Source: Candidatus Omnitrophota bacterium (GTDB taxonomy: Bacteria; Ratteibacteria; UBA8468; MWAK01). From it: a stretch of DNA of 64,000 nt. Made by a program: the position numbers and the translations under genes. Shown one piece after another: positions 18,617 through 50,705 of this stretch (the first letter of the stretch is position 1; each line of letters opens with the position of its first letter). The notes under the pieces were generated by a model that did no database searches, was not told the origin of the DNA, and worked only from the letters and a program-made list of their open reading frames with translations. Location: NCBI GenBank assembly GCA_043797665.1, contig JAZDPL010000038.1:26940-90939 (forward strand), read 5' to 3'.

Positions 18617-19134
18617 TCTGAGGCAAAGCCGAAGAATCTCTCTTTTAGACCCTCCCTTTCCAATCCTATGGAAAGGGGACCCGTGTCTTTACTCAGGGTG
18701 ACACCCTGACGGGTGTCACTTTTCCCGCCTCTTTTTTCTTTCAGGTAAATCTTTTCTATCACTATTGCCCGGTCAAACATTTTGCACATATCGTAGATGG
18801 TCAGGCTGGAAATGGCACAAGCCGCCAGGGCTTCCATCTCCACACCGGTCTTGGCATGAGCCCGGACCTCTGTTTCAATCTCAATCCTCCCTTTCTGAAT
18901 CTTAAATTCAACCCCGACAAATTCTATGGCGATGTTATGACAATGGGGAATCAGTTCCGAGGTTCTCTTTGCCGCTAATATCCCGGCGACCCGGGCGCTT
19001 TCCAAAACATCTCCTTTGGGAACTCTGCCCTCTTTGATTAATCTGAGCACCCCCTCTTTCAACCTGACAACACCGTTAGCCCGGGCGCTCCGGTGAGTCT
19101 TCCCCTTCCGGCCGACATCCACCATTCCCTTCAT
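18613..19134 (-). CDS. moaC: Cyclic pyranopterin monophosphate synthase accessory protein MoaC, with a repeat-derived C-terminal tail
   Basis: MoaC core (GKTHRSARANGVV...ELIPHCHNI). The last ~30 codons are encoded by a GC-rich hairpin element (18650-18719). Confidence 0.75.
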   Translation of the reverse strand: MKGMVDVGRKGKTHRSARANGVVRLKEGVLRLIKEGRVPKGDVLESARVAGILAAKRTSELIPHCHNIAIEFVGVEFKIQKGRIEIETEVRAHAKTGVEMEALAACAISSLTIYDMCKMFDRAIVIEKIYLKEKRGGKSDTRQGVTLSKDTGPLSIGLEREGLKERFFGFASE

Positions 19135-19739
19135 TCTTCTCCTTTAATCTTTTTCCAGTCATCATTTGAATTAAGATTAAAAAATATCTTGTCCCAGTTT
19201 CCCTCTAAGTCCAAAAATGCTTTTTGGCCGCATTCCATCAGCAGGTCTTTAAGTTTTAATCTGCCCGCCTGAATACACTGCTCAACCAGAGGTAAGATAC
19301 TCCGGCTATATATACTGCAGAGCGGTTCTGTACCTCCCTGGTGACGGGGAACCAAACAGGCGGGTCTCTTTTCAGAAAAGCAGGATTTCAATCTTCTCAA
19401 AATATCTGCGTTTAAAAAGGGCAGATCACAGGCTACAAAGAGCCCGGCAATATTCTTCATCATCTTCAGACCGGTATAGATTCCACCCAGCGGACCAATA
19501 CCCTTTATTTCATCTTCCACGGTTTTAACACCAAAACGGACGTATCTGTCAGGGGAGTTGGTGACAACAAGAACTTCCGCGAAGTCTGCCCGTAACAGGG
19601 AAAGCGTATCTTCAATAATCGGACTCCGGTCAATTACCAGAAAGGCTTTATCAAGTCCATCCATCCGCCTGTTTTCGCCGCCGCTTAAGACCACTGCGGA
19701 AAGCTCCATTGAGGATGCCATTATCCCCCTATCCGGCAC
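19131..19739 (-). CDS. mobA: Molybdenum cofactor guanylyltransferase MobA
   Basis: MobA N-terminal motif AVVLSGGENRRMDG.. and an overall NTP-transferase fold. Confidence 0.7.
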   Translation of the reverse strand: MPDRGIMASSMELSAVVLSGGENRRMDGLDKAFLVIDRSPIIEDTLSLLRADFAEVLVVTNSPDRYVRFGVKTVEDEIKGIGPLGGIYTGLKMMKNIAGLFVACDLPFLNADILRRLKSCFSEKRPACLVPRHQGGTEPLCSIYSRSILPLVEQCIQAGRLKLKDLLMECGQKAFLDLEGNWDKIFFNLNSNDDWKKIKGEE

Positions 19740-20695
19740 ATTGACACCGGTGCCTTAGAGAAATCTGGTGATGCCAGTCCGTGGTCAGCCGGTTTTTGCA
19801 AGACCGCATCCTCAATAAACTCCATCACCATTTTTTCCGAACCTTTCTCCAGAAGACTATGCAAATTGAAAGAGACCGGACGGTGCAGACAAAGGACTAA
19901 ATTACCGCTCGCCGTAATTCTTAAACGGTTGCAACTGAAGCAAAAAGAACCGCTTAACGGACTGATGAGCCCAAAAGAACCCCGGTAACCGGAAACCCGG
20001 AAATACCGGGCTGGTCCGGAACCAAAAACCTTATCAGGACCGACCTCGCCCATCTCCTTTATCTTTTCCAGAACTTCGGTCCCGCTGATAAAATACTTGC
20101 TCCACTCCAGGGCATTGCAGGTGGGCATAAACTCGACAAAACGTACCACCAGATTATGATTCCGGGTAAGGCTGATAAACCCACCTATTTCATCGTCATT
20201 TATACCCTTAAGCATCACCACATTTATCTTAACCGGAATAAATCCTGAATCTAAAGCACACCTTATGCTTCGTACCACTTCCACAATCCGGTTGTGTCCG
20301 GTTAAAAAACTAAACCGTTCACTCCGCAAACTATCCAGGCTGATGGTTACCCTTTTTAGACCGGCTTTCTTCAACTCGACGGCATAACCGGCAAACAAGA
20401 TTCCGTTGGTGGTCAGCGATAAATCCTGTACCCCGGGAATTTCAACTATTCTCCTGACTAAACCTGCCACATCTTTTCTCAACAGAGGTTCACCGCCGGT
20501 CAACTTAATCTTATCCACGCCTAATTTAACCAAACACTTTATCAGGCTGATAATCTCTTCAAAAGAAAGAATTTCTGACTCCCTGCTTAAACTTAAATCC
20601 CGGTGAGGCACACAATAGAGACAGCGCAGGTTACACCGGTCAGTGAGAGAAATCCGCACCGACTCTATCTTTCTGCCGCAGGAATCAATCAGCAT
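19721..20695 (-). CDS. moaA: GTP 3',8-cyclase MoaA (radical SAM)
   Basis: CNLRCLYC radical-SAM motif and a C-terminal second-cluster Cys triad (CFSCNRLR). Confidence 0.8.
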   Translation of the reverse strand: MLIDSCGRKIESVRISLTDRCNLRCLYCVPHRDLSLSRESEILSFEEIISLIKCLVKLGVDKIKLTGGEPLLRKDVAGLVRRIVEIPGVQDLSLTTNGILFAGYAVELKKAGLKRVTISLDSLRSERFSFLTGHNRIVEVVRSIRCALDSGFIPVKINVVMLKGINDDEIGGFISLTRNHNLVVRFVEFMPTCNALEWSKYFISGTEVLEKIKEMGEVGPDKVFGSGPARYFRVSGYRGSFGLISPLSGSFCFSCNRLRITASGNLVLCLHRPVSFNLHSLLEKGSEKMVMEFIEDAVLQKPADHGLASPDFSKAPVSMCRIGG

Positions 20696-20821: not shown

Positions 20822-21889
20822 TTATTTCGTTTGGTACTGGTATTTGTAATGGGTGGAACAGGTACCCTCACCGCTGACCATGCAGGGACCCATCGGTCTT
20901 TCCGGACTGCACCGGGACCGGAACATCTTACATTCTTCCGGACTGATGGCGCCGATAATCACTTCTCCGCATCGGCAGGCCGGATTGACCTTTGCCTTTC
21001 CGGCTCCCGGAAATTTAAATTTGTGCCAGCCGTCAAACTGTTGGAACTTTTCTTTAATCTGTAAGCCGGTTCCGGGAATCTTTCCCAGACCGCGCCAGGA
21101 AGATTCACAAGACTGGAAAACCCGGTTAATTAAAGATTGAGCGGACCGGTTGCCTTCCGGCTTTACCGCCCGCCGGTATTGAATCTCAACCCTGGGCAGA
21201 CCGCTTCTAATCTGTTTCAGGATAAAAGCTATGCCTTCCAGAATGTCTTCCGGTTCAAAACCGGTGATAACCGCGGGTTTTTTGTATTTCTGCGGAATAA
21301 ATTCGTAAGGGTACGCCCCGATAATGGTACTGACGTGACCCGGGCAGAGAAATCCGTCAACCTGAACCCGGTCGGAATCAAGTAAGACCGCCATCACCGG
21401 TGGTATGGTCTTTATCACTGACAAGAGAAAGAAATTGTTTAGACGCCGGCGTTCTGCTTCCAGAATGGTGGCGGCAATCGGAGCCGCGGTCGTCTCAAAC
21501 CCGATGCCCAACAATACCACTTTTTTGTCCGGATTCTCTTTCGCGATTACCAGGGAATCTATCGGACTGTAAATAAGACGGACGTCCGCACCCTTTACTC
21601 TCTCCTTCTCTAAACTGGTTCCTGAAGCCGGTACCCGCAAAAGGTCTCCGAAAGTAGTAACGATTACCTTCTTATCCCGGCTCAAAAAGCAAAAAGAGTG
21701 GATGTCCTCTTCACTGGTTACGCAGACCGGGCAGCCTGGTCCGGCGATAAGTCTAAGGTTGGACGGAAGCAGATTAGGCAGACCACTCCGGTAAACCGCC
21801 ACCGTGTGGGTACCGCAGACCTCCATTATGGAAATAAGCCCCTTACCTCCGGCTAACCTTTTTATCTCCGTAACAATCTCTGGTACCAT
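20822..21889 (-). CDS. hypD: [NiFe]-hydrogenase maturation factor HypD
   Basis: CGTH, GPGCPVC and C-terminal CxxH-type motifs. Confidence 0.8.
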   Translation of the reverse strand: MVPEIVTEIKRLAGGKGLISIMEVCGTHTVAVYRSGLPNLLPSNLRLIAGPGCPVCVTSEEDIHSFCFLSRDKKVIVTTFGDLLRVPASGTSLEKERVKGADVRLIYSPIDSLVIAKENPDKKVVLLGIGFETTAAPIAATILEAERRRLNNFFLLSVIKTIPPVMAVLLDSDRVQVDGFLCPGHVSTIIGAYPYEFIPQKYKKPAVITGFEPEDILEGIAFILKQIRSGLPRVEIQYRRAVKPEGNRSAQSLINRVFQSCESSWRGLGKIPGTGLQIKEKFQQFDGWHKFKFPGAGKAKVNPACRCGEVIIGAISPEECKMFRSRCSPERPMGPCMVSGEGTCSTHYKYQYQTK

Positions 21890-24644
21890 AATACAAACGA
21901 AGGATCGTCATTGCGAGGCAGGCTCCTGCTAACACCAGAATTATCGGTGCCAATAAACCCTTGATAAGCAGGTAGACAAAGGCGATTACCGGATAAAGCG
22001 TAATCCTTGTCAGGTGTTTTACCCAGAGATGTTGTGAGATAAATCTGGCTCCGATGGGTCCCTTCTGATAATACCAGTCAACAAACCTTCTGCCCGGGCT
22101 ATTCGTTAAGAGATAACCATCCCGGAACCTTTTCAGTATCTCCACCTGTTTGGCTAAGGGAGAGCCAAACGCCGCGGTGGCTATAAAACACTCACCGAAT
22201 AGACTGCCGGTCTCCTCCCCTGTTCCGGTCAGGGGAATTTCTAAAGTTGGGGTATCCGGGTCATCAGAAGTTACCGCAAGGGTTGCACTGAATGTCTTAA
22301 GTGAGGATATATCATAGGATGGTGCAAAAGTTACGGTGACGGTGTTACTTCCATCAGGTAAAATTGTTACTGTTTCGCTTCCACAAGGATTGTCACCACC
22401 GCTTACATCTAAAGAGAATGTTGAGGACGTTGTGTCTGAGGATGATGTCTCTGAGACGGTAATAGCTGTAATATTAAGGTCTGCGGTGCCCGTGTTAGAT
22501 ATAGTGAAGGTTTTAGGGTTTGAAGCAGTCCCTGCTTCTACCCCGCCAAAGTCGTAACTTGCGGGAGACACTTCAATTTCAGGATTCGTTGTAACAACTA
22601 CCTCAGTATCAGTTTCAGTTTCACCGGTTCCGCTTAAAGAAACTGAACAAGGATTTTCATCCGGGTCATCAGAAGGGATGGATAAAGTAGCAGTTTTTGA
22701 ACCAGAGGAAACGGGAGAAAAAACCACCTCTAAGGTTTTGCTTGCACTTGAAGTTATAATTTGGCCGGAAGCATTGTCATTCTGAATCTGCAACTCATCA
22801 GCATTGGTACCAGACAATGTTATTGTTCCAACAGAAAGGTCGCCGGCGCCGATATTAGATATGGTAAAAACCTTGGCAGTTGACGAAGTTTCTACCGTTA
22901 CACTCCCAAAATTGTGGCTGGTGGGAGATACGAAAATATTGGGGTCTGTTGTTGTACCAGTCCCCCGAATGCTGAAATCATAAGGGTTCTCATCATTGTC
23001 ATTGGTGGCAATGCTAATAGTAGCAGTGCGTATGCCTGAAGCACTGGGGTCAAATTTCACCTGGAAGGTAGTACTGCTATTAGAAGTAACTGGAGAGGAA
23101 GGTTGGATTGTTACCGTAAAGTCAGAAGCATGGCTGCCACTGATTACAATTATAGTGTCTCCGGTTAAATCTAAATCGGCAATACCGGTGTTCTGAATTG
23201 TAAAGGTATGGGTTACTTCGCCGCCGGTCACATCTACACTGCCAAAATCGGTTTCATCAGCGGTGCTCGGAGTAGTATCCCCATCTACGATTGTCTGGCT
23301 ATTTCCCTGGAGGTTGATTTCGGGTGTCATAACAACCTGAACCGGAACGTTGGTATCGGTATTGGTGCCATCTCCCAATTGTCCACAGTCGTTGCCTCCC
23401 CAGGTCCAGACCGTACCATCATCTTTAAGTGCCATAGTATGGTCCGCTCCGCCGGCAATCGCAGTTATATTGGTAAGATAATCTATTCCACCGGCACCTT
23501 TCACCTGAACCGGAGTGTTGATACTATCGCTCTCCGTGCCATCTCCCAGCTGTCCATAGAAGTCCCATCCCCAGGTCCAGACCGTACCATCATCTTTGAG
23601 CGCAATGGTATGGTCCCCCCCACCAGCAATTGCTATTATATCAGTAAGAAAATCCTCTCCAAACTCGCCTTTTACCTGAACCGGAACGTTGGTATCGGTA
23701 TTGGTGCCATCTCCCAATTGTCCACAATCGTTGCCTCCCCAGGTCCAGACCGTACCATCATCTTTAAGTGCCATAGTATGGTCCGCTCCGCCGGCAATCG
23801 CAGTTATATTGATAAGATAATCTATTCCACCGGCACCTTTCACCTGAACCGGGGTGTTGCTGCTGTCAGTATTAGTACCATCTCCTAATTGTCCCCGGTT
23901 GTTCTTTCCCCAGGTCCAGACAGTAGTACTATCAACACCGCTGGCATCTTTGAGCGCAACAGTATGGTTCTCTCCACCGGCAATCGCAGTTATATTGGTA
24001 AGATCATCTATTCCACCGGCACCTTTTACTTGAACCGGGGTGTTGGCATTAATATTAGTGCCATCTCCTAATTCTCCACAGTCGTTCCGTCCCCAGGTCC
24101 AGACAGTATCGGCATCTTTAAGGGCAATAGTATGGTCATATCCACCGGCAATCTTAGTTATACCGGTAAGATAACCTATTCCAGCCTGAACCGGTATGTT
24201 GGTATCGGTATTAGTATCATCCCCTAATTCTCCATAGTCGTTATCTCCCCATGTCCAGACAGTACCATCATTTTTGAGTGCAATGGTATGGTCCGCTCCG
24301 CCGGCAATCGCAGTTATATTGGTAAGATAATCTATTCCACCGGCACCTTTCACCTGAACCGGAGTGTTGATACTATCGCTCCCCGTGCCATCTCCCAGCT
24401 GTCCATAGAAGTCCCATCCCCAGGTCCAGACAGTAGTATCAACACCACTGTCGTCTTTGAGCGCAATGGTATGCTTCCTTCCGCCAGCAATCTGTACCAT
24501 GGTCGCAAAGGAAGTATTCTCCAGCAAAATCAAACAAACTATTCCAGGCAATAATAGATGAACAAACCCGGCCGTTATTTTCTGCTTCAGGCTATTTCTT
24601 CGTAATATTCTGTATGTCTTCATCTTTTTGAGACAAATTAGCAA
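21843..24644 (-). CDS. Large RCC1-repeat (beta-propeller) surface protein with Ig-like Thr/Ser-rich domains and a C-terminal CFIATAAFGS motif plus TM segments
   Basis: About 8 RCC1-like repeats (TVWTWG.N..GQLGDGT). Three S/T-rich beta-sandwich-like segments. C-terminal GECFIATAAFGSPLAKQVEILKRFRD followed by two hydrophobic helices. Overlaps hypD by 47 nt. Confidence 0.65.
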   Translation of the reverse strand: MLICLKKMKTYRILRRNSLKQKITAGFVHLLLPGIVCLILLENTSFATMVQIAGGRKHTIALKDDSGVDTTVWTWGWDFYGQLGDGTGSDSINTPVQVKGAGGIDYLTNITAIAGGADHTIALKNDGTVWTWGDNDYGELGDDTNTDTNIPVQAGIGYLTGITKIAGGYDHTIALKDADTVWTWGRNDCGELGDGTNINANTPVQVKGAGGIDDLTNITAIAGGENHTVALKDASGVDSTTVWTWGKNNRGQLGDGTNTDSSNTPVQVKGAGGIDYLINITAIAGGADHTMALKDDGTVWTWGGNDCGQLGDGTNTDTNVPVQVKGEFGEDFLTDIIAIAGGGDHTIALKDDGTVWTWGWDFYGQLGDGTESDSINTPVQVKGAGGIDYLTNITAIAGGADHTMALKDDGTVWTWGGNDCGQLGDGTNTDTNVPVQVVMTPEINLQGNSQTIVDGDTTPSTADETDFGSVDVTGGEVTHTFTIQNTGIADLDLTGDTIIVISGSHASDFTVTIQPSSPVTSNSSTTFQVKFDPSASGIRTATISIATNDNDENPYDFSIRGTGTTTDPNIFVSPTSHNFGSVTVETSSTAKVFTISNIGAGDLSVGTITLSGTNADELQIQNDNASGQIITSSASKTLEVVFSPVSSGSKTATLSIPSDDPDENPCSVSLSGTGETETDTEVVVTTNPEIEVSPASYDFGGVEAGTASNPKTFTISNTGTADLNITAITVSETSSSDTTSSTFSLDVSGGDNPCGSETVTILPDGSNTVTVTFAPSYDISSLKTFSATLAVTSDDPDTPTLEIPLTGTGEETGSLFGECFIATAAFGSPLAKQVEILKRFRDGYLLTNSPGRRFVDWYYQKGPIGARFISQHLWVKHLTRITLYPVIAFVYLLIKGLLAPIILVLAGACLAMTILRLYYGTRDCYGDKKVSRR
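23400..24420. repeat. Near-identical ~170/340-bp tandem nucleotide repeats inside the RCC1-repeat gene
   Basis: The string ccaggtccagaccgtaccatcatctttaagtgccatagtatggtccgctccgccggcaatcgcagttatattggtaagataatctattccaccggcacctttcacctgaacc recurs at ~23400, ~23740 and ~24250, with only a few mismatches. Confidence 0.7.
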
Positions 24645-25027: not shown

Positions 25028-27433
25028 TCAGAATGACAAAGACCTGGCTAAAAGGAGTTGCCCCAAACAGACACCGGAATCATTTATCGGAACCCGCTCC
25101 GGAATAACCGGCTCAAACCCGGCAATAGAAAGTCTTTTCAAAACAAGGGATAAAAGAAGCCGGTTCTGAAAAACTCCTCCGGAAAGAACGACCTTCTTTA
25201 TTTTAAACTGTCGGGACAGTCTTTGGCAAACCGAAAAGATAATTTCCGCTATTGATAAATGGAACCGGTTGGCAATATCTTCCACCGGTACTCCTCTTTT
25301 TAAATCGGTTACCATGCCGGTAATGATGGGTCGCCAGTCTACCTTCACCCCATCCAAAACAAAGGGATACGGCAAAAGGTTTTCAGATTCAGATTTTTCC
25401 GCTGCGGTCTGAATCCTGACCGGCGCCTCTGCCTCATAACTCTGTTCATAACAGAGACCCAAAATCGCGGAGACACCGTCAAAAAGCCTGCCGGCACTGG
25501 AGGTAACCGGAAAAGGGTATCCTTTCTTTATCGCTTCCAAGACCGGTTTCCATAAATCCCCCCAACTTGATGTTGGGGTCCCCGCGGCAGATGCGCCTTC
25601 AAATCCCCCTACTTCCCCCTTTCCAAATCCTATGGAAAGGGAACCCGCCTTTAGCAAAGGGGGATTGAGGGGGATTTCCGGAATATTCTCTCCAAAACTC
25701 CGGTAGAGAAGACTTAAACCGGTCCGCCAGGGCTGGTTCACCGCCAAATCACCCCCGGGCAAAGGGAAAGGAAGAAAAAAACCTGCCCGCTCTAACTTTT
25801 CGTGGTCTCCGACAAAGAACTCTCCGCCCCAGGCGCTGCCATCTTCACCATAACCGGTACCGTCAAAAGCAACCCCGATTATTGGTTCTTTAATCCCTTT
25901 CTCCGCGATAACCGAAGCCACGTGTGCCTTGTGGTGCTGAATCAAAAGAAGAGGTATCTTTTCTCTTTGCGCCATCTCCTCAGCCAAACGCCGGCTCCGG
26001 TAATCCGGATGGAGGTCGGCGACTAAAAACTTCGGTTGAATGCCGAACATCTTTTGATAGCGAGACAGGGTCTCCTCTAAAAACTCCTGGTTTTCATAAT
26101 TCTTCAGGTCACCCAAATACGTCGAAAGGAAAACGGTATTACCGGCGGCCAGGGCAAAGGTTCCCTTTTCCTCAGCACCAAAAGAGAGACCGGGCGGAAA
26201 GGTAAATCCAGTCAAAATGGGCAAAGGTGCGTAACCGCGGCTGCGCCGGATAGAGACCATCCCGGATTTCCCCAGGGGGGTTGTCACAAAAGGCAAAAAT
26301 ATAGAATCGTCGCAACGATTAATAATCCTGCGGTTATGAACCAGGAAATAGTCGGCAATCCCGGAAAGTTTTTCTTCCGCCTCGTCATTATCACAAATAA
26401 TCGGTTCCTCCGAAAGATTGGCGCTGGTTGCCACCAGAACGTCCAATTCCTTCTCAAAAAGAAGGAAATGAAGCGGTGCGTAGGGCAGAAAGAAGCCGTA
26501 GTAATTATTGTCCGGGGCTATGGAGGGCGCCAGTAAATTATCTGAAGGCTTCTTTTTACTGAGAAGAAGAATCGGCCGGGCCGGACCGGACAGGACTCTC
26601 CGGTCTTCAGGAGAAAACAGGGCATACCGGGCTATCGTCTCACCGGATTCTGCCATTAACGCCAGAGGTTTTATCGGTCTGTTTTTGCGCTCCCGTAATT
26701 TCCTGACCGCGGTTTCGTTATGGGCGTCGCAAATTATGTGGAATCCGCCGATTCCTTTAACCGCTAAAATCCTGCCCTGCCGGAGCAGACCAACCGCTTT
26801 CTTAACCGCGCCCCCTTTTGTGGCAATCGTAACCTGCTGGTACCGCAAGGAAACTTCCGGACCACAGACCGGACAGGCAATTGGTTCCGCGTGGTATCTG
26901 CGGTCAGCCGGATTAAGGTACTCCTTCCGGCAAACACCGCAGATTTGGAACTCAGACATAGCGGTTTTGGACCGGTCATAAGGCAAACCGCTGATAATAG
27001 AGTAACGGGGACCGCAGTTGGTACAGTTAATGAAAGGGTATTGGAACCTGCGGTCAGTCCGCTCCTCCATTTCGGAAAGGCAATCAGGGCAGGACGCGAT
27101 ATCCGGAGGCACAAAGAGTTCACCCCTCCTTCTACTCTGGCTCCGGACAATCCGGAAGTCCGGGAAGTTAACCGGCGGAACTTCTTTAGTCTTTATCCGG
27201 AGAATTTCGCTGGCTGGCGGCGCCTCTTTGGAAAGGAATACCACAAACCGGTCAAGAACTTTACGGGTACCTTCAATATGAATCGTTACGCCGTCGCGCT
27301 GGTTCCGTACAAACCCGCACAGTCCCAACCGGGTGCTCAGGCGGTACACGAACGGCCGGAAGCCGACACCCTGTACCAGACCGGTTATTTTAATCCGGAA
27401 GGCTGTTCTCTTTAGGGGTTGATTAGTAGACAA
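25028..27433 (-). CDS. hypF: Carbamoyltransferase HypF
   Basis: Acylphosphatase domain (VQGVGFRPFVYRL...), two Zn-finger Cys pairs, and YrdC and Kae1-like domains. Contains an in-frame repeat-element insertion at 25560-25680. Confidence 0.85.
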   Translation of the reverse strand: MSTNQPLKRTAFRIKITGLVQGVGFRPFVYRLSTRLGLCGFVRNQRDGVTIHIEGTRKVLDRFVVFLSKEAPPASEILRIKTKEVPPVNFPDFRIVRSQSRRRGELFVPPDIASCPDCLSEMEERTDRRFQYPFINCTNCGPRYSIISGLPYDRSKTAMSEFQICGVCRKEYLNPADRRYHAEPIACPVCGPEVSLRYQQVTIATKGGAVKKAVGLLRQGRILAVKGIGGFHIICDAHNETAVRKLRERKNRPIKPLALMAESGETIARYALFSPEDRRVLSGPARPILLLSKKKPSDNLLAPSIAPDNNYYGFFLPYAPLHFLLFEKELDVLVATSANLSEEPIICDNDEAEEKLSGIADYFLVHNRRIINRCDDSIFLPFVTTPLGKSGMVSIRRSRGYAPLPILTGFTFPPGLSFGAEEKGTFALAAGNTVFLSTYLGDLKNYENQEFLEETLSRYQKMFGIQPKFLVADLHPDYRSRRLAEEMAQREKIPLLLIQHHKAHVASVIAEKGIKEPIIGVAFDGTGYGEDGSAWGGEFFVGDHEKLERAGFFLPFPLPGGDLAVNQPWRTGLSLLYRSFGENIPEIPLNPPLLKAGSLSIGFGKGEVGGFEGASAAGTPTSSWGDLWKPVLEAIKKGYPFPVTSSAGRLFDGVSAILGLCYEQSYEAEAPVRIQTAAEKSESENLLPYPFVLDGVKVDWRPIITGMVTDLKRGVPVEDIANRFHLSIAEIIFSVCQRLSRQFKIKKVVLSGGVFQNRLLLSLVLKRLSIAGFEPVIPERVPINDSGVCLGQLLLARSLSF
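25560..25680. repeat. Family-B GC-rich hairpin element (core AAGGGGGATTGAGGGGGATTTC) inserted in frame in hypF
   Basis: Hairpins ccccaac-ttgat-gttgggg and ccctttcc-aaatcctat-ggaaaggg, plus the 22-mer aagggggattgagggggatttc. That 22-mer is also present at 41016 and, as its reverse complement, at 40170. Confidence 0.65.
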
Positions 27434-28068
27434 AGCCAGTCAAACCATTCTTTAAAACCAGTACTCTGAAGAGAAGAAATTTGAAATATTGGAAGGGTTG
27501 CGTTCACCCGGTGGACATACTCTAAGCAGGCTTGCAGACTGAAAGGGAGGTAAGGAAGCAGGTCCATCTTAGAAAGCACCAAAGCCTTTGCCTCGCGAAA
27601 AAGTAAAGGATACTTCAGGGGCTTATCCTCCCCCTCGGTAACACTTAAAACTGCGACCTTGGCATCTTCACCGATATCAAACTCTGCCGGACAGACCAGA
27701 TTTCCAACGTTCTCCACCAGAACCACGTCTAACTTGTCTAACGGAAAGTCACGCAGGCCGTAATGGACAAGTTTTGCCTCCAGATGGCAGGCGCCGCTGG
27801 TCAGTAACTGACTCACCGGAATACCCAAAGGCGCCAACCTTTCCGCATCCCGGGTCGTTTCAATATCACCCTCCAGAACCGCGAAACGCACCCTGTCTTT
27901 CAGTCCTTGCACTGTCTTTTCCAGGAGGGTGGTCTTGCCGCAACCGGCCGACCCGATTATGTTTAACAGCACCAGATTCTTTTCGCGCAGCAGAGTACGG
28001 GTCTTCTGCGCCCACTCGTCATTGGCGCCCATCAGGTCCCGGTAGACCCTAATCCTCTGCGTCTCCAT
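27412..28068 (-). CDS. hypB: Hydrogenase nickel incorporation GTPase HypB
   Basis: G1 motif GSAGCGKTTLL and a CH-type metal-binding N-terminus. Confidence 0.8.
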   Translation of the reverse strand: METQRIRVYRDLMGANDEWAQKTRTLLREKNLVLLNIIGSAGCGKTTLLEKTVQGLKDRVRFAVLEGDIETTRDAERLAPLGIPVSQLLTSGACHLEAKLVHYGLRDFPLDKLDVVLVENVGNLVCPAEFDIGEDAKVAVLSVTEGEDKPLKYPLLFREAKALVLSKMDLLPYLPFSLQACLEYVHRVNATLPIFQISSLQSTGFKEWFDWLCLLINP

Positions 28069-28411
28069 CGCTAACGGTCAGTCCGTCTAAATAAAGTTCC
28101 TTTCCGCCCAGAATCTCCAAATCCCCGGAGCCGCAAGCACTGCATTGAAAAAGGACATCTTTTATCTCTTCCCGCTGCCGGCATTTCCGACACTCCGCCA
28201 GAACCGGGGCGGATACAATCTCAAGGATGGAACCTTCCAGATTCGTACCTTTCGCTAAACTCCGGTAGGCAAACTCCAGGTTATCCGGAACAACCTGCCG
28301 TAGTCTGCCCACTACCACCCTGGCACTTAAAATCTTCGGCACTGGTTCTATTTCCTCCAGTTCCGCACTAATCGCCTTTACCAGCCATTCACCAATCGCA
28401 AATTCGTGCAT
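28049..28411 (-). CDS. hypA: Hydrogenase nickel insertion protein HypA
   Basis: MHEF... N-terminus and zinc finger CRKC...CSAC. Confidence 0.7.
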   Translation of the reverse strand: MHEFAIGEWLVKAISAELEEIEPVPKILSARVVVGRLRQVVPDNLEFAYRSLAKGTNLEGSILEIVSAPVLAECRKCRQREEIKDVLFQCSACGSGDLEILGGKELYLDGLTVSDGDAED

Positions 28412-28634
28412 AGGGGGTTGCTAAAATAAAAAATCCCGTCCTGCCGTTGGAATACACCTCTAGACCCATAAAGTAGGTGGGTGTCATCGCAGGCTACTTT
28501 TTGCCCGCAGGCAATCGTACCTGACTCCGACTCCCATTATCAGGGTGTTGGCAAAAGGTTGTATCCCTGGCGAACAGGACAGGATTAGTACCTATTTTAC
28601 TCCCCTCCCTCCCCGCTGTCAATAGGTAGGCATC

Positions 28635-29167: not shown

Positions 29168-29179
29168 CCTGATCCTCCT

Positions 29180-29230
29180 ACTGTATTACAGTATTATTGT
29201 ATAACATAAATATTCACAATGTCAATAGGG
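29180..29230 (-). promoter_or_regulatory. Sigma70-like promoter (TTGACA-17-ATACAAT) with a perfect palindromic operator ACTGTA-T-TACAGT over the leader of the TA operon
   Basis: Reverse complement: TTGACAttgtgaatatttatgttATACAATaatACTGTAATACAGTaGGAGGatcATG. The palindrome lies between the -10 box and the RBS, as expected for antitoxin autoregulation. Confidence 0.4.
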
Positions 29231-31690: not shown

Positions 31691-31708
31691 AAATGTTTCT
31701 CCTTTTGC

Positions 31709-39492: not shown

Positions 39493-39522
39493 ACCTAATA
39501 CAAACGAATTAAATATTTTGAC

Positions 39523-39608: not shown

Positions 39609-39616
39609 AAGTTATG

Positions 39617-40929: not shown

Positions 40930-40953
40930 CGCAGTTTCACCCCCACCTCTCCT

Positions 40954-41847
40954 CTAATCCCTCTTCTTCCCCCTTTGCAAAAGGCGGGTCCCCTTCCCGT
41001 TGAATCGGGAAAGGGGGATTGAGGGGGATTTCATGGCTTCGGCTACCAGCAAGGCTTGCTTTACTTCTTTGACATCATGTACCCGAAAGATATTCGCACC
41101 GCCAAAGTAGGTCACCACTACCGCGGCAATCGTCCCGGCCATCCTTTCGGAAACCGGAGAACCGGTGATTTCACCGATAAATTTCTTCCGGGATAGACCA
41201 ACCATAACCGGACGGGAAAGGACACTGAATTCTCCAATTTTATTCAGGATGGTAAGGTTATGTCCGGTGCTCTTTCCAAAACCGATACCCGGGTCAACTA
41301 CAATCTGCTCCTCAGAAACACCGTTATCCAAAGCAATTCTTACCCTTTCTTCCAGAAACCGGGAGATTTCTTCAATTACGTCCTGATAGACCGGTCTATT
41401 TTGCATCGTGGCAGGTGTGCCCTGCATATGCATTAAAACTACTCCGCAGCCGGTTTCACCAGCCAGTTTCAAAATTCGGGTATCCTTTCCCGCGGTAATG
41501 TCGTTAATAATGTGCGCGCCTCTTTCCAGTACTGCTCTGGCTACCTCATATTTATAGGTGTCTACGGAAACAGGTATCTTTATTTTAGGAATAAGATTCT
41601 CCAGGACCGGCAGCAACCTTTTCTTCTCCTCTTCCACACTTACGGTCTGACTGCCTGGCCGGGTGGATTCTCCGCCTAAATCGATAATGTCCGCACCCTC
41701 AGCCTCCATCCGGAAAGCCCGGTCAACCGCCTTCTCTTTTTCTAAATAGGCTCCTCCTTCGGAAAAGGAGTCCGGCGTCAGGTTAAGGATACCCATAACC
41801 CTGGGCCGGGTACAGTCAATCTTCTTTCCGCGTACTAACCAGACCAT
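40954..41847 (-). CDS. folP: Dihydropteroate synthase FolP (C-terminal tail encoded by a repeat element)
   Basis: Pterin-binding TIM barrel (GILNLTPDSFSEGG, VDTYKYEVA). The last ~25 codons (SIPLSRFNGKGTRLLQRGKKRD) are encoded by the family-B element. Confidence 0.75.
   Translation of the reverse strand: MVWLVRGKKIDCTRPRVMGILNLTPDSFSEGGAYLEKEKAVDRAFRMEAEGADIIDLGGESTRPGSQTVSVEEEKKRLLPVLENLIPKIKIPVSVDTYKYEVARAVLERGAHIINDITAGKDTRILKLAGETGCGVVLMHMQGTPATMQNRPVYQDVIEEISRFLEERVRIALDNGVSEEQIVVDPGIGFGKSTGHNLTILNKIGEFSVLSRPVMVGLSRKKFIGEITGSPVSERMAGTIAAVVVTYFGGANIFRVHDVKEVKQALLVAEAMKSPSIPLSRFNGKGTRLLQRGKKRD
40966..41032. repeat. Family-B GC-rich hairpin element at the folP 3' end
   Basis: Sequence ccctttgcaaaaggcgggtccccttcccgttgaatcgggaaagggggattgagggggatttc. 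It shares the 22-mer core with the copies at 25658 and 40170 (reverse complement). Confidence 0.65.
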
Positions 41848-43620: not shown

Positions 43621-43685
43621 TCATTCCCGCGGGTACTAAGCGGGAATCCATTATAGATTCCTGCCTAATGCATGCAGGAATGACA
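43621..43685. repeat. Composite palindrome with two tandem near-identical hairpins (ATTCC[C/T]GC-9nt-GC[G/A]GGAAT) between ybaB and dnaX
   Basis: Sequence gtcATTCCCGCgggtactaaGCGGGAATccattatagATTCCTGCctaatgcatGCAGGAATgac. A third hairpin, ccttaccg-ttgaatc-ggtaagg, lies at 43709-43737. Confidence 0.55.
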
Positions 43686-43750
43686 GATCGAAACGCAGGC
43701 TACGGGTCCCCTTACCGTTGAATCGGTAAGGGAACCTGCGACTACCTATT

Positions 43751-45427
43751 TTACGCTTCTTTTTTGATACTCATCACCTCACCCCCAAAAATGTTTAATA
43801 TCCTCTTTACCATTCCCTCTTCATCCGGCGTAAGGGAAACAGGAACGGAAGATATTCCTTCCGGAGGTTCCTCGCTGGTTATTTTTGGGGCGGCAACCTC
43901 TTTCTTGACTACCTTCGCCTCTTTTTCAACCGAGGCTGCGAACCGTACCGGATAACCAAACTTCTTCTGCCAGATAGCAACCAAAGGCTGCTGGTTCCGG
44001 TCTAACAAATCCTGGTCGAACTGGCGCCGAAATTCAAGATGGAGTGTTTTTACGAAGGGACCGCTCTCAACACTCTTAAGATGTCCAGCCCGGAGCACGG
44101 GCAGAAGAAACGGATTTTCCTTACCAACCTCAGATAGAAAACCGGTCCAGGCTTCTTCAACCGGAACCTCTTCCGGTTTAGATTTCTCTTCAGGGCTTTG
44201 AGATTCAGGCCCTTTTGTCAAGTCCCCCCCACCTACACCTCCCCCACTTGGGGGGAGGATTTGGGGTACGGGTGATATAAATTCCGGTAGGTTCAAAACA
44301 GATTTCGGCTGTCCTTCTTTTAAGTTTAAAGATTTACCGAAAGCATCCGCCAATTTCAACAGGGAAACTTCTAATCTGGTCCGTAAGAGGTCCTCGTACT
44401 TTAACTTCTCCCGTTCTTCCGCCAGGGATTCCAGGAAACGGATGATTTCCTCCTGACTGAACTGGCCGATTATTTCGGAAAGCCGTTCTGCAACTTCCGG
44501 AGCCACCGTATCGGCAACCAATTCTCCGGCACCGAACTTTATCAGCAGGAGGTAACGGCTGAATTCCAAAAGTCCGGACGCAAACTGGAAGAGTTCGTAA
44601 CCGGCACCGGTTACCTTCGCTACCGTCTCCAAACATCCTTTCCGGTCCCCGGAAAGAAGTACTTCTATTGTTTCCAGGTAAACCCTTTCGGGAACCAGAC
44701 TCAGTAACCGCTCCACATCGGAAGTGGTAATTGTTTCTCCGTATCGGAAAGAAGCCAACTGGTCCAGGACAGAAAGCCCGTCGCGGAAAGAACCGGCTGC
44801 CGCCTGGCTGATACGGATAAGCGCGGCAGGTTCCGCCTTAATCCCCTCTCTTCCCGCAATTTCAGAAAGGTGCCGGCTGAGTTCGTTAACCGGGATAAGA
44901 TGGAAATCATAACGCTGACAACGGGAGATAATCGTGGGCAGTAGTTTATCCGGCCGGGTGGTGGCAAAGATAAACTTGACGTGGGCGGGCGGTTCTTCCA
45001 GCGTTTTCAGGAGGGCATTAAACGCCGGGTCGGTAAGCATGTGTACTTCATCAATCAGGTAGATTTTAAACCGGCTCTTTACTGGTAAAAAACGCGTATT
45101 CTCGTTGATGGAACGTGCTTCATCGATACCCCGGTTGCTGGCACCGTCAATCTCCAGAAGGTCTAAACTGCGGCCATCCAGAATCTCCCGGCAGTTTTCG
45201 CATTCCCCGCAGGGTTCACCGGTGGGTACTCTAACGCAGTTAAGGCTGCGCGCTAAGATACGCGCGGTGGAAGTCTTACCGACCCCGCGCGGACCGGCAA
45301 AGAGATAGGCGTTGGTAATCCTGCCCTCTCCCAGCCCTTTAACCAGGGCGGTGACAATCTCAGCCTGACCCAGCACTTCGGAAAAAGTCTTTGGCCGGTA
45401 CTTCAGAGCCAATACCTGATAACCCAT
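43751..45427 (-). CDS. dnaX: DNA polymerase III subunit gamma/tau
   Basis: Walker A GPRGVGKTS and clamp-loader AAA+ motifs, followed by a low-complexity linker and tau-like C-terminus. Confidence 0.8.
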   Translation of the reverse strand: MGYQVLALKYRPKTFSEVLGQAEIVTALVKGLGEGRITNAYLFAGPRGVGKTSTARILARSLNCVRVPTGEPCGECENCREILDGRSLDLLEIDGASNRGIDEARSINENTRFLPVKSRFKIYLIDEVHMLTDPAFNALLKTLEEPPAHVKFIFATTRPDKLLPTIISRCQRYDFHLIPVNELSRHLSEIAGREGIKAEPAALIRISQAAAGSFRDGLSVLDQLASFRYGETITTSDVERLLSLVPERVYLETIEVLLSGDRKGCLETVAKVTGAGYELFQFASGLLEFSRYLLLIKFGAGELVADTVAPEVAERLSEIIGQFSQEEIIRFLESLAEEREKLKYEDLLRTRLEVSLLKLADAFGKSLNLKEGQPKSVLNLPEFISPVPQILPPSGGGVGGGDLTKGPESQSPEEKSKPEEVPVEEAWTGFLSEVGKENPFLLPVLRAGHLKSVESGPFVKTLHLEFRRQFDQDLLDRNQQPLVAIWQKKFGYPVRFAASVEKEAKVVKKEVAAPKITSEEPPEGISSVPVSLTPDEEGMVKRILNIFGGEVMSIKKEA

Positions 45428-45432
45428 AATTT

Positions 45433-45483
45433 TCTCTTCGAATCCCCTTTAGCCATATCAAGTAGTAGCGGCGTGGGGATTCG
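45433..45483. repeat. 51-bp direct repeat duplicating the 3' end of tRNA-Met plus 33 nt of downstream sequence (second copy at 45561-45611)
   Basis: The string tctcttcgaatcccctttagccatatcaagtagtagcggcgtggggattcg is identical at both loci. The distal copy overlaps tRNA positions 45594-45611. Confidence 0.75.
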
Positions 45484-45593
45484 GCGCCCTCGGCTTTCAC
45501 TACGCCTCAGGTCGGCCATTCGCTAATAACGCTCTTATTCATCGCGTTATCTGACTTCGCTCTCTTCGAATCCCCTTTAGCCATATCAAGTAG

Positions 45594-45666
45594 TAGCGGC
45601 GTGGGGATTCGAACCCCAGACATAGCGGGTATGAGCCGCTTGCTCTACCAGCTGAGCTACACCGCC
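45594..45666 (-). tRNA. tRNA-Met (anticodon CAT)
   Basis: Reverse complement ggcggtgtagctcagctggtagagcaagcggctcataCCCGCtatgtctggggttcgaatccccacgccgcta. It folds as a cloverleaf with a D-arm, a CTCATAC anticodon loop and a TTCGAAT T-loop; G1.U72 and U6.G67 are wobble pairs. CCA is not encoded. Confidence 0.7.
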
Positions 45667-45791: not shown

Positions 45792-47033
45792 ATGCGCCCA
45801 AAAAGATACTGGATATATTTATTCCCCGGTTTGGTTGATTTCTCGCTGGCTTCTTTTTCCTTCTTTGTCGCGGTCAAAGCGACCCAGTTAGGCGTTTCCC
45901 CGATTACCATAGGAGGAATCGGTTCCGTCTGGGGAACAACCTACTTCGCCTCAAGTCTTATCTTGTCAAAATTGGCGAAGAAGGAGAACGTGTATCGTCT
46001 GATGATGACAGGTTGTCTCTTGTTTATATTGCTCACCATAGGTTTTGCCCTTTTCAATTCCCTACCATTCCTTTTTATTCTTACGGCCCTGACCGGAATA
46101 ACCACCGCTCTCTTCTTTATCGGTTTCCAGGTATTCATGGGCGAACAAAACAATATGCCGCTCCATAAAGGAATCGCTTTCTATACCCTTGCCTGGAGTT
46201 CCGGCATAGCTTTCGGTTCCCTGGTCCAGGGAATCCTGCTCTCCTGGGGGCCTTTTATTTCTCTCCTGCCGGTATTCCTCAGTTTTATCGCAGTTATCTT
46301 CGGTTTGAAGTTGATAAAAAGGGGGACTGACAAATCAACAGATTTCCCAAATGTAGGGGGCGGATTTATCCGACCCGCGGGCTTGATGAATCAAGCCCCT
46401 ACAGTTCGGATTAATAGGGGTATAAAAGATATAAATTCCTGCGGGTTCCAGGAAGACCCGGTAAACGACCGCATTAAAACGGCCTACGTCTATGTAGGAT
46501 GGATGAGTATCTTTACGGCTACCGCGATCAGAATGGGGATAGGTTTTCTGCTCCCCAACCTGACGATGACCCTTTTTGGATTTTCTTCGGCTCTGGCTGG
46601 CCTGGCAATATTTATCAGTCTGATGGCCCAGGCTCTGGCCGGCTTTTCAATGATGAAACTTCCCGCCTGGCGCTACCGGCTTGCACCTCTTTTCTGGACG
46701 AAATTGATTGTGGTTATCGGATGTTTCCTCGCGGCCGCCTTCCCGGCAAAAATTACCATCTTCACCCTGACTATTCTGGTGGGTATCTATTCCGGACACG
46801 CCTACTACAACGGCGTATTTTATGCCCTTAACCAGCGGGACAAAAGCGGCCGGAACGTCGGTATAAACGAAGCCCTGGTGGGTGTCGCCAGCATTGTGGG
46901 ACCGCTTACCTTTGGAATCTGTCTCCAGGCAGGGGTACCCTGGTTTATGATGGCGCCGGCGATATTTGTCCTCATCACCTTTGTGGCTCAAGCAATACTC
47001 TTGAAACTGCGGTTATCGGGCTCAATAAATTGA
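45792..47033 (+). CDS. MFS-type transporter carrying an in-frame family-A repeat insertion
   Basis: 12-TM topology over 413 aa. The segment 46331-46402 encodes ...FPNVGGGFIRPAGLMNQAPTV... from the repeat element. Confidence 0.55.
   Translation: MRPKRYWIYLFPGLVDFSLASFSFFVAVKATQLGVSPITIGGIGSVWGTTYFASSLILSKLAKKENVYRLMMTGCLLFILLTIGFALFNSLPFLFILTALTGITTALFFIGFQVFMGEQNNMPLHKGIAFYTLAWSSGIAFGSLVQGILLSWGPFISLLPVFLSFIAVIFGLKLIKRGTDKSTDFPNVGGGFIRPAGLMNQAPTVRINRGIKDINSCGFQEDPVNDRIKTAYVYVGWMSIFTATAIRMGIGFLLPNLTMTLFGFSSALAGLAIFISLMAQALAGFSMMKLPAWRYRLAPLFWTKLIVVIGCFLAAAFPAKITIFTLTILVGIYSGHAYYNGVFYALNQRDKSGRNVGINEALVGVASIVGPLTFGICLQAGVPWFMMAPAIFVLITFVAQAILLKLRLSGSIN
46331..46402. repeat. Family-A palindromic repeat element, copy 5 (inside coding sequence)
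   Basis: Sequence caaatcaacagatttcccaaatgtagggggcggatttatccgacccgcgggcttgatgaatcaagcccctac. The upstream 22 nt are shared with copy 6. Confidence 0.7.
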
Positions 47034-48467: not shown

Positions 48468-48686
48468 TGTAATATATTAGCGTCAGAAAGAGCGTCGGTA
48501 AATCTTTGCCAACAAGTTTGCGGAGGCAGAAGGACAGTGATTTTTGTCTGCCGGAAGAGGGAAACCAAGTGTTTATCTTGGAGGGATTCCCCTGATGACA
48601 AACCCTTACCACTGTTTCTGCCGTAGCTACTGTCCGAAGTTGGAGAAGACTTACCGGCGCTAATACGATACGGGTTAATCAAAGTG

Positions 48687-50705
48687 CTATTTGGCTTTCA
48701 GCGAATGCATGGAAAATGCCTTGAGAGAAAAGGTGCAATAAACTTCGGTCTCATCCTGGTCCTCATAGACCCCAAAGCGGACTTCCCAGCAGTGCAGGTC
48801 CCGCCAGATGCTTATTTCCCTTCCCTCAAAACGGTCATCCTCTAAGTTGTACGTGGCGTACGCGTCCACCTTCCACCTGTTGCCTACCGGAAAGGAAATG
48901 GAGGGAACGATTGTCTCCGTATCATCCTGCTGATAATTATGCTGGAGACCACAACTGACGCGGTCGTTGTGCCAGGTACAGGAAGTAGACGAAGTATTCC
49001 AAACGCCCCGGTCTAAGTCAACCTCACTTTCGTTCCGGAAGGTAAGTCTACCCTGCGGGCCTAAAACGAAGAGGCTATGTAGGTCCCCGAATTTACCATC
49101 TTTCACGGAATAGTCAGCCTTAAGGTCAGATCTCATCTTCTCGGAACTCTTCCCATCCTTGTTGTAATTGAGCCGGTTAAGTAACTGAAAGGAAAGGATA
49201 TTATCGGACTGAATCTCGTCGACCTCATCATAAGAGAAGAATTCGTCCGGGCCTTTGTCTGCCCACTGATTCAAAAAAGTAATCCGGGGTTCCAGATAAT
49301 GGGTCAGGACGGCACCGTCGGCCCGGTTGAAACTACGGCAAAACTTCCAGTCCAGGTTAAATCCCGCCTGGGAAAAAACCCGGCCTTCTTCGTCTCCTTC
49401 TACGTCCTGGGAATAGTAGGTGAAGCCACCGGTTAAAAATGGCCTCCATATCCCACCGGCAAAGGGATAGAAGTCAGAAATACTCTGCGTATAATGTGCC
49501 CGCTGCGTCTCCTCCCTTTCCGCGGAAAATTCCTTGGAAAGATTACTCAACAACAGGTCTTCTTTCCAGTAGAAACCGCCGAATTTGCGGAAAGGTGAAG
49601 CGAAGGATAATTCCGGCAAATGCCGCGTAAGATTGTGTTCATCATCCAATTCCGCATTGGTAAAGAAACTTAAGGCATAGTCTTCCCGGTTCGCGGAATA
49701 GTAAAGAAAACTGTCCCGCTCAACGTCTTTCACGCTTTCCCGCCAGAAGTAATCTTCCAGGAAATCTTCGTCGGAAAACTTATGTAATTCCAGCAAAAAA
49801 TCATCTTCTCCTTTTTCCCTCAAAAATTCACTCCGGTGCCAGGCTTCAATCCGATAGCGGTCTTCATCTACGTCCTGGTCGCGAATGAAATAAGTCTTCA
49901 CCCGGGTTGGTCCCGATTCTCCGCTCTCCAGGCCGGGAGCAAAACCGATTCCCCTATCACCCCGCAGGTCAAAATCGCAGTAGTAACTGGATTCCGGGGT
50001 TGAGTAGAAAGTAACGGTTACCACCTGAGCACCGTCACGGGAACTCAACGTTGGAGCAATATTTAAACCAAAAGGTCTTTTCTCTTTACCGATACTTTGA
50101 AAATAACTGGGGAGATAAAAAACAGGTAACCAACCCACGCGGAATGTCGCTGACTCTATCTTTATTCCGCTATCCTTTTTAAGAGAGGCATTTTTAAAAG
50201 CAATCCGATAGTGCGGCGGGACAATCTCACAGGTAGAGAGATAACCGTTGTAAAGCAAAACTTCTTGGCCGCCGGATATTTCTATCCGCTCAACCCTCCC
50301 AAACCAGAGAGGACTGGAAAAATCCGCGGGTCCGGTAAAACCGTTGCCGGTATTAAAGTTATAGGAAAGTTCATCGGTTTCAATCTCGCCGAAAGGTAAA
50401 AAAAACCGTACCTTTCCCTGCAACCATGCCTCTTTGCTCCCGGGAAAATACCGGACATAATCAGCCTTTACCATCCGGTCACCGGACTCAATACAAACGT
50501 TTCCTTTTAGAATAATCTCCCCCTCCCTTGATGGGAGGGAACCCGACTCTAAAACAGCCTCAACCGTATCCGCCTGCCAGAGAACCTGGGAAGAAGCAAA
50601 AAGAGGGGTGAAAGAAAAAAAAGCGAAAAAGAGAAAGTAAGTTATTAGCCTCAAATAGTTGTACAAATGGTAAAATGAGCCCAAAGACTTTTCGGCGCTA
50701 TACAA
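48687..50705 (-). CDS. lptD: LPS-assembly outer-membrane protein LptD-like
   Basis: Signal peptide, an OstA-like N-terminal beta-jellyroll (ILKGNVCIESGDRMVKADYVRY), then a long beta-barrel-type region rich in alternating aromatic residues. Confidence 0.5.
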   Translation of the reverse strand: MYSAEKSLGSFYHLYNYLRLITYFLFFAFFSFTPLFASSQVLWQADTVEAVLESGSLPSREGEIILKGNVCIESGDRMVKADYVRYFPGSKEAWLQGKVRFFLPFGEIETDELSYNFNTGNGFTGPADFSSPLWFGRVERIEISGGQEVLLYNGYLSTCEIVPPHYRIAFKNASLKKDSGIKIESATFRVGWLPVFYLPSYFQSIGKEKRPFGLNIAPTLSSRDGAQVVTVTFYSTPESSYYCDFDLRGDRGIGFAPGLESGESGPTRVKTYFIRDQDVDEDRYRIEAWHRSEFLREKGEDDFLLELHKFSDEDFLEDYFWRESVKDVERDSFLYYSANREDYALSFFTNAELDDEHNLTRHLPELSFASPFRKFGGFYWKEDLLLSNLSKEFSAEREETQRAHYTQSISDFYPFAGGIWRPFLTGGFTYYSQDVEGDEEGRVFSQAGFNLDWKFCRSFNRADGAVLTHYLEPRITFLNQWADKGPDEFFSYDEVDEIQSDNILSFQLLNRLNYNKDGKSSEKMRSDLKADYSVKDGKFGDLHSLFVLGPQGRLTFRNESEVDLDRGVWNTSSTSCTWHNDRVSCGLQHNYQQDDTETIVPSISFPVGNRWKVDAYATYNLEDDRFEGREISIWRDLHCWEVRFGVYEDQDETEVYCTFSLKAFSMHSLKAK

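Follow-up and report, generated by a model that had tools for sequence, protein, structure and literature searches.

The window analysed here, a stretch of 64,000 nucleotides (nt) from a Candidatus Omnitrophota bacterium (assembly GCA_043797665.1, contig JAZDPL010000038.1, positions 26,940 to 90,939), contains several housekeeping genes whose coding sequences are interrupted or extended by short GC-rich palindromes. NCBIfam assigns moaC, hypF, fpg/mutM, folP and dnaX and gives a weak match for lptD, which confirms the gene identities proposed in an earlier inspection of the letters and their translations, hereafter the sequence-only reading. The HypF protein encoded here matches, at 100% identity, an NCBI entry annotated as a Candidatus Omnitrophota MAG. 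Three of these genes, hypF, mutM and folP, carry the full copies of one palindromic element, referred to as family B; two further copies, which consist of its hairpin only, are located in the extended tail of moaC and in the spacer between dnaX and ybaB. The copies and their host genes are the following:

18613-19134, minus strand: moaC, with an extended tail in a 138-nt block (18580-18717)
18651-18690, plus strand: hairpin-only copy in the extended moaC tail, CCCTTTCC-AATCCTA-TGGAAAGGG-GACCCG (nhmmer E = 4e-7)
25028-27433, minus strand: hypF, host of copy B1
25601-25677, plus strand: B1, full copy in hypF (nhmmer E = 1.8e-25)
39617-40486, minus strand: mutM/fpg, host of copy B2
40165-40238, plus strand: B2, full copy in mutM/fpg (nhmmer E = 8e-24)
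40937-41032, minus strand: B3, full copy with a 19-nt extension at the folP 3' end (element proper 40955-41031; nhmmer E = 4.6e-26)
40954-41847, minus strand: folP, whose 3' end is made by copy B3
43703-43738, minus strand: hairpin-only copy in the dnaX/ybaB spacer, with a 13-bp stem (z = -4.5; nhmmer E = 5e-5 for 43703-43732)

The last of these copies is intergenic, as the dnaX stop codon lies at 43751 and the ybaB start codon at 43605.

The 22-mer AAGGGGGATTGAGGGGGATTTC is found exactly at 25657-25678 and 41011-41032 of the plus strand and, with two mismatches, at 40164-40185 of the minus strand; it was matched in none of 100 dinucleotide shuffles. The sequence-only reading had named the same three sites, correctly taking two as exact and the third as the reverse complement; however, it had counted one mismatch instead of two, and its coordinates were off by 1 to 6 nt. 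It had also described a small hairpin and a GGG(G)ACCCGCC tail next to each 22-mer, and reading of the flanks and alignment confirmed this and revealed that the 22-mer is part of a larger unit, whose full copies are 76 to 96 nt long. The three full copies share 79-87% pairwise identity, and an nhmmer profile built from them re-finds each at about E = 1e-24 to 1e-26. Among the hairpins that had been proposed as relatives, those in the moaC tail and the dnaX/ybaB spacer are recovered by the profile, whereas the one in the dnaX linker gives no hit and the one in lptD only E = 0.3. The census of the 64-kb window stands at three full and two hairpin-only copies.

Two units in inverted orientation make up a full copy. 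Unit 1 comprises AAATCCCCCTnnnTCCCCCTTT, an apical stem-loop (loop ATYCWA) and AAGGGGA, and is followed by unit 2 with the layout CCCGCCTTT-nnn-AAAGGGGGAnnnAGGGGGATTT. The units begin with AAATCCCCCT and contain a hairpin of the form TCCCCCTTT-loop-AAAGGGGGA with stems of 9-13 bp; the hairpin-only form ends in ACCCG. The heptamer AGGGGGA/TCCCCCT is used four times to build the motif. When folded as single-stranded DNA, the full copies adopt a three-way junction (z = -2.4 to -4.0), and the two hairpin-only copies reach z = -3.4 and -4.5. The unit-1 hairpin occurs both alone and nested within other palindrome families. A G-quadruplex reading of the G-runs was set aside, since inspection revealed only three of them per strand.

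In-frame insertions in mutM and hypF

The insertion sites were compared with the DNA of a close relative (GCA_964630335.1) and related metagenome contigs, which are 86-95% identical to the window. In mutM, the net insertion amounts to 60 nt (about 40167-40226), corresponding to the 20 codons for PFKKGGSPCPRMGKGGLRGI, residues 89-108 of the protein. The closest mutM orthologue (P0001, on contig L122; 86-90% nucleotide identity) lacks exactly this insert, and its flanks align codon for codon; the right arm of B2 is shortened. Structures of Fpg in the PDB have a gap opposite the insert, and in the AlphaFold model of MutM, whose predicted local distance difference test (pLDDT) score averages 85, residues 89-107 score below 50 and lie between two beta strands. 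The only other long stretch of MutM below 50 comprises residues 236-245, which we take to be the mobile lesion-capping loop of Fpg. Other palindrome-coded inserts are found in the same loop of four Omnitrophota-type orthologues (P0004, P0007, P0008 and P0015), and the insert of P0007 (contig L123; peptide RFNGKGTR) contains the family B inner hairpin nested in a different outer palindrome.

In hypF, the arms of B1 are located at 25601-25622 and 25656-25677 and the inner hairpin at 25617-25641; the copy folds into a three-way junction (z = -3.9) and encodes HypF residues ~585-612, EIPLNPPLLKAGSLSIGFGKGEVGGFEG. Orthologues of 58-64% identity lack the entire segment, and a relative with 83% identity in hypF carries a different palindrome at the B1 site, next to an older hairpin that both have in common. 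The hypF gene of this relative (L124) also possesses a 57-nt in-frame copy of its own, AGTTAAATCCCCCTCAATCCCCCTTTGTAAAAGGGGGACTTCAGGGGGATTTAAAGA, encoding LNPPQSPFVKGGLQGD, which is missing from the window near 25353. In the AlphaFold model of HypF, residues 590-624 have a pLDDT below 50 and form an unstructured segment between two helices, in which the insert is situated.

Replacement of the 3' ends of folP and moaC

At the folP site, the 96 nt of the window (40937-41032) correspond to 4 nt (AAAG) in L122. B3 thereby supplies a new FolP C-terminus, MKSPSIPLSRFNGKGTRLLQRGKKRD, together with the stop codon: in the relative, FolP ends with ...AEAIKNCDADIGC and its gene overlaps ruvX, whereas in the window it ends with ...AEAMKSPSIPLSRFNGKGTRLLQRGKKRD and the overlap is gone. 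The moaC block at 18580-18717 is composed of three stacked palindromes of different families, the middle one of which is the family B hairpin. In L128, whose flanks are ~95% identical, 8 nt occupy the position of the 138-nt block, and a second relative, L126, carries a different element at the same junction.

The net gain of the window at the three empty sites is thus 60 nt in mutM, 92 nt in folP and 130 nt in the moaC block. The absence of these segments from 86-95% identical DNA and the relative's own copy in hypF identify them as recent insertions that are polymorphic for presence and absence, in both directions between window and relative, rather than as native sequence. The sequence-only reading had named conservation of the segments in orthologues as one result that would overturn it, and the alignments reveal lineage-specific segments instead: the mutM, folP and moaC sites are empty in relatives, and the hypF segment is absent from distant orthologues. 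The peptides that it had quoted for HypF, Fpg, FolP and MoaC are all present in the translations, and mapping of the inserts onto structures, which it had proposed, places those of HypF and MutM in loops with a pLDDT below 50. Its description of the elements as embedded in genes is accurate for hypF and mutM, where they lie in frame; in folP and moaC, however, the native C-terminus and stop codon are replaced and genes that overlap in the relative are separated. To call the coding sequences essential was an overstatement for hypF, mutM and moaC. Its interpretation that the genome has been colonised by miniature palindromic elements is supported.

Distribution beyond the window

Outside the window, the arms and the inner hairpin were found in large numbers. 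A scan of genome representatives for AAATCCCCCTNNNTCCCCCTTT revealed at least 142 matches at at least 120 loci, compared to about 4 matches expected by chance (19 fixed bases, 1.2e12 positions). Judged by the record titles, the matches listed come from about 20 phylum-level groups, including Omnitrophota, Desulfobacterota, Nitrospirota, Nitrospinota, Gamma- and Betaproteobacteria, Chloroflexota, Patescibacteria and Deinococcota, and isolates such as Iodobacter, Andreprevotia and Pseudoxanthomonas are represented. The complementary arm AAAGGGGG, which was not part of the query, follows the arm in 133 of the 142 matches listed, whose usual forms are single palindromes of 46-47 nt and inverted doublets of 73-95 nt. 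The variable triplet of the arm tracks taxonomy among these matches: AAA is mostly found in Desulfobacterota, CAA mostly in Gamma- and Betaproteobacteria, and T(A/C/T)A in Patescibacteria, Chloroflexota and others. No long open reading frame (ORF) spans most of the copies listed in other taxa (105 of 120). A few, however, are convincingly in frame, for instance those in an 813-codon ORF in which heme-binding CxxCH motifs recur (L057) and in a 947-codon ORF (L024). Full copies are also present on plasmids of Acinetobacter and cyanobacteria.

The inner hairpin was found at 85 metagenome loci, with the matches concentrated in a few sample series. These comprise 60 distinct sequences, 37 of which have a perfect stem of at least 9 bp. 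Across the 37 variants the stem covaries (TTTCCA/TGGAAA, TTACCG/CGGTAA, TTGCCA/TGGCAA and others), and the loop and the ACCCG tail stay constant. The hairpin forms the apex of several different outer palindromes, including GTAG-type ones. Searching the literature for the arm sequences yielded nothing but unrelated papers on eukaryotes and no description of the arm, and searches for Omnitrophota and repeats returned nothing relevant; family B seems to be an undescribed repeat that extends across many bacterial phyla and phages.

The arm is also carried by 104 viral loci on IMG/VR contigs (L217-L320; for instance L273, L240, L242 and L293), and up to about eight co-oriented copies are found on a single 31-kb contig. 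When read in reverse orientation, the start codon of a long ORF follows ...AAAGGGGGAnnnAGGGGGATTT within 0-15 nt in 50 of 122 viral copies, with a mode of 4-7 nt, compared to 23 of 122 random control positions, which gives a phage-type arrangement of hairpin-AGGGGGATTT-N4-7-ATG. No such bias was detected at the bacterial loci (12 of 109, 18 in the controls). AGGGGGA resembles a Shine-Dalgarno sequence and can base-pair with its anti-Shine-Dalgarno counterpart if one G-U pair is allowed, and this likeness may help to explain why the same heptamer-based palindrome occurs in so many phyla. It is tempting to speculate that the family B arms represent one undescribed palindrome superfamily, built from four Shine-Dalgarno- and anti-Shine-Dalgarno-like heptamers (AGGGGGA/TCCCCCT) and common to the ~20 phylum-level groups, plasmids and viral contigs. 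It would act as a stem-loop with a ribosome-binding module in viral contigs, phages would be its users and vectors, and the in-frame insertions in the compact Omnitrophota genomes would reflect the selfish aspect of a mobile cassette for translation initiation; at present, this idea is tentative and rather doubtful. On the viral contig L296, a 414-codon ORF (10095-11339), methyltransferase-like by eye, contains a family B copy in frame, QIPLSPPLEKGESLRGG, and terminates within a second one; in-frame insertion therefore also takes place in phage genes.

Proposed mobility of the element and alternative explanations

Insertion, polymorphism, conservation of the hairpin by covariation and modular nesting of family B are directly observed, as is the lack of target-site duplications. 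None was found in the four filled/empty comparisons (mutM, folP, moaC and the relative's hypF site), nor in 43 complete copies outside the window, whose flanks extend the palindrome rather than repeat. The insertions sometimes replace a few native bases. [quoted passage not shown] Copies would insert at unlinked sites without duplicating the target, and selection would keep those that preserve the frame, are free of stop codons and fall into disordered surface loops, as in HypF and MutM, as well as those at gene 3' ends that rewrite the C-terminus and stop codon, as in FolP and MoaC. Frame-preserving, stop-free insertion is not improbable, since three of the six reading frames, i.e. about half, are open in each full copy. 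Judging from the many hairpins and the lack of duplications, an enzyme recognising single-stranded hairpins may mobilise the copies in trans, as for REP/REPIN elements with their REP-associated tyrosine transposases (RAYT) and for IS200/IS605; an HUH/Y1 transposase such as RAYT/TnpA-REP would be the most likely type.

Several observations weigh against this reading. No transposase domain was detected by NCBIfam or Pfam in the 46 ORFs of the window that were scanned, and all-against-all clustering of 2,870 ORFs from the 120 listed element-bearing loci revealed no recurrent transposase family beside the copies, but only ABC ATPases, response regulators and epimerases. The family B units lack the GTAG/CGTC tag by which RAYT-associated REPs are defined, and the left flanks of the insertions lack a common target motif. 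The mutM insertion boundary is uncertain by as much as 12 nt, since the neighbouring FPSS/SPPS codons may stem from the element; the HypF model is poor overall (mean pLDDT 68), and the copy number in the source genome is seen through 64 kb only. In L036 and L296, ORFs that lie between inverted copies were considered as transposase candidates and rejected, as they are nif-related genes and a methyltransferase-like ORF.

The 22-nt inverted arms and a size of 76-96 nt would also suit classical MITEs, i.e. deletion derivatives of an insertion sequence (IS) with a DDE transposase, which move by cut-and-paste via their terminal inverted repeats, and TTAA or TA-like sequence borders some of the copies elsewhere. 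However, the A/T flanks are extensions of the palindrome rather than direct repeats, the four filled/empty comparisons are free of direct duplications, neither a parent IS nor a transposase was seen in the loci examined, and the single-palindrome forms of 46-47 nt fall below the 70-300 bp quoted for bacterial MITEs, so that this origin is unlikely. Dedicated mobility might also be dispensed with altogether if replication template switching at hairpins or gene conversion between existing G5/C5 hairpins produced or spread the palindromes locally and if the likeness across phyla reflected convergence on a very stable simple motif. Different palindromes indeed strike the same loops and gene junctions repeatedly, families nest and recombine their modules, native bases seem to have given way to the insert instead of being duplicated, and the motif is built from one heptamer, used four times. 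This is difficult to reconcile with copies of 60-96 nt and 79-87% identity at unlinked loci, with clean empty sites that lack a precursor hairpin, and with an arm triplet that tracks taxonomy, as expected of inherited subfamilies; an origin of this kind appears quite improbable.

It was further considered whether the elements are not selfish DNA but functional RNA or DNA signals kept by selection, for instance a stem-loop with a Shine-Dalgarno-like module, stabilisers of mRNA or sites of protein binding, with the coding copies as by-products. The excess of start codons behind AAAGGGGGAnnnAGGGGGATTT in viral contigs, the common orientation of the copies on each contig and the pairing of AGGGGGA with the anti-Shine-Dalgarno sequence are in line with such a function. 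However, bacterial loci lack this enrichment, and the copies of the window lie inside genes in both orientations. A terminator and promoter scan over mutM-folP revealed no terminator-like site, and Rfam, at gathering and permissive thresholds, matched only tRNA-Met and 6S RNA in the window and none of the elements. A function of this kind in place of selfish spread is very unlikely, and the mobile, REP/REPIN-like element described above is preferred.

Other palindromes and features of the window

Two hairpins of the window, from the seven loci listed by the sequence-only reading, were tested as further members of family B; the first is not one, and the second is at best a possible one:

44222-44262, plus strand: hairpin in the dnaX linker (peptide PPSGGGVGGGD)
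50515-50545, plus strand: hairpin in the lptD-like ORF, CCCTCCC-TTGAT-GGGAGGG-AACCCG (codons ~54-64, ESGSLPSREGE)

The dnaX-linker hairpin resembles a third palindrome family, CCCC(T/C)CACC...GGTGAGGGG, of which similar sequences are found in L123, L124 and L126. The nhmmer match in lptD (50519-50551) is not significant, and this hairpin is possibly a degenerate hairpin-only copy. A weak match at 53527-53572 looks like ordinary coding sequence. More small palindrome families are located at 43627-43686, 18617-18646 and 18696-18719 (GTCATTCCCGCG...CGGGAATCC, GAGATTCTTCGGCTTTGCCTCAGAATGAC and GTGACACCCGTCAGGGTGTCAC), and such families encode peptides at other positions of Omnitrophota HypF and MoaC orthologues.

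A separate repeat of the window, family A, is a typical GTAG...CTAC double-hairpin doublet, which is REPIN-like. A family A block with a nested hairpin (39474-39620) provides, through its GTAG, the TAG stop codon of mutM; the relative L122 lacks the block, and its mutM runs on (CQKING*) and overlaps the next gene. Further copies lie within long ORFs, namely at 46352-46402 in a gene for a major facilitator superfamily transporter (45792-47033) and at 55334-55384 in an O-antigen-ligase-like gene (54987-56798), and family A therefore probably also inserts in frame.

A segment of ~8.8 kb with lower GC content (28623-37468; 0.40-0.44) is absent from the relative L121, where a gene for a 693-amino acid protein abuts hypA and the 6S RNA instead, and represents an insertion or deletion or an island. 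It encodes a CBM-domain protein, a 961-amino acid unknown protein, a DUF1559/N-methyl pseudopilin-like protein, a GntR regulator and an EamA transporter; the 6S RNA gene (28429-28588; Rfam, 64.8 bits) is located just downstream of hypA (28049-28411). Another low-GC island (8774-16135; 0.36-0.41) harbours genes for an SNF2-type helicase, two Eco57I-like N6 DNA methylases and a DUF3800 protein and probably serves restriction or defence. A perfect 51-nt direct repeat (45433-45483 and 45561-45611, 128 nt apart), the second copy of which overlaps the 3' end of tRNA-Met (45593-45666, minus strand), looks like the attachment-site scar of an integrated element. Finally, a 933-codon ORF (21843-24644) is made up of six to seven tandem repeats of ~170 nt (~57 amino acids) with 60-97% identity.

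Implications

Colonisation of genes by in-frame palindromes is best known from Rickettsia and from scattered REP cases; here, it is found in a free-living candidate phylum with compact, overlapping genes, and the clean pairs of filled and empty sites date the insertion events as recent. As a consequence, enzyme loops gain peptides, new C-termini and stop codons take the place of the native ones and genes that overlapped become separated, which bears on the question of how proteins gain new loops. For the annotation of metagenome-assembled genomes, such peptides inflate the space of hypothetical proteins and distort orthologue alignments. The exact recurrence of the 22-nt arm across phyla, plasmids and phages is not predicted by REP biology and provides a tractable handle for finding the enzyme or selective force behind the elements.

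Comparison with known systems

REP and REPIN elements are associated with RAYT (TnpA-REP) transposases (PMC3733652; Bertels & Rainey 2011, PMC3116915), and Di Nocera et al. 2013 (PMC3733652) describe intragenic REPs from Opitutus terrae, Rickettsia and others that encode 20-30 amino acids and are common in repair genes. Like family B, they are short imperfect palindromes, often inverted doublets of ~80-100 nt that fold into long hairpins; they leave no target duplication and undergo compensatory stem changes, and a minority are intragenic, encode 20-30 amino acids and often lie in repair genes. REPs are dispersed in high copy number and mostly extragenic; for family B, the 64 kb of the window contain three full and two hairpin-only copies, and 105 of the 120 copies listed in other taxa have no long ORF across them. 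Family B has the imperfect palindrome of 20-40 bp with a stable stem-loop and, both in the window and in many copies elsewhere (73-95 nt), the inverted doublet of REPINs. In contrast, it lacks the GTAG/CGTC tag, although family A in the same window has GTAG...CTAC; all three full copies of the window touch coding sequence, no RAYT was seen among the 46 window ORFs, and its arms recur unchanged in many phyla, while a REP is as a rule confined to its lineage.

The bacterial interspersed mosaic elements (BIMEs) of Escherichia coli are said to be similarly mosaic, combining palindromic units with other short motifs, but they are strictly extragenic and made of GTAG-type REPs. Cyanobacterial small dispersed repeats (SDR; reportedly Elhai et al. 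2008), which are 21-27 nt long and specific to cyanobacteria, are likewise said to be very small mobile repeats in hairpin contexts that are nested and inserted without duplications; they differ from family B in sequence as well as in length and host range.

The Rickettsia palindromic elements (RPE), which reportedly go back to Ogata et al. 2000, resemble family B in being inserted in frame into unrelated housekeeping genes, where they add a peptide at fold-compatible positions and are lineage-specific when compared with orthologues. By description, family B differs from them in length (46-96 nt versus ~100-150 bp), in its G5/C5 runs (RPEs are AT-richer) and in its host (Omnitrophota versus Rickettsia only). 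RPEs are the classic case of in-frame palindromic inserts (reviewed in PMC10969869), and insertion in frame at permissive sites is also seen for family B, with 20 additional amino acids in MutM (pLDDT < 50) and the loop 590-624 in HypF. Bacterial MITEs such as Correia/NEMIS, QMITE of Coxiella and Nezha (PMC10969869, PMC5896051) have the size, terminal inverted repeats and lack of coding capacity of family B and are occasionally fused in frame to host ORFs. With 22-nt arms and 76-96 nt, full copies of family B agree with terminal inverted repeats of 15-30 bp and a length of 70-300 bp, whereas the forms of 46-47 nt lie below this range and the four filled/empty comparisons revealed no target-site duplication. 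MITEs also have a recognisable parent IS, and none was seen beside family B, for which no dedicated search of an IS database was made. Taken together, the missing REP tag and the missing MITE duplication set family B apart from both groups, although it works like intragenic REPs and RPEs.

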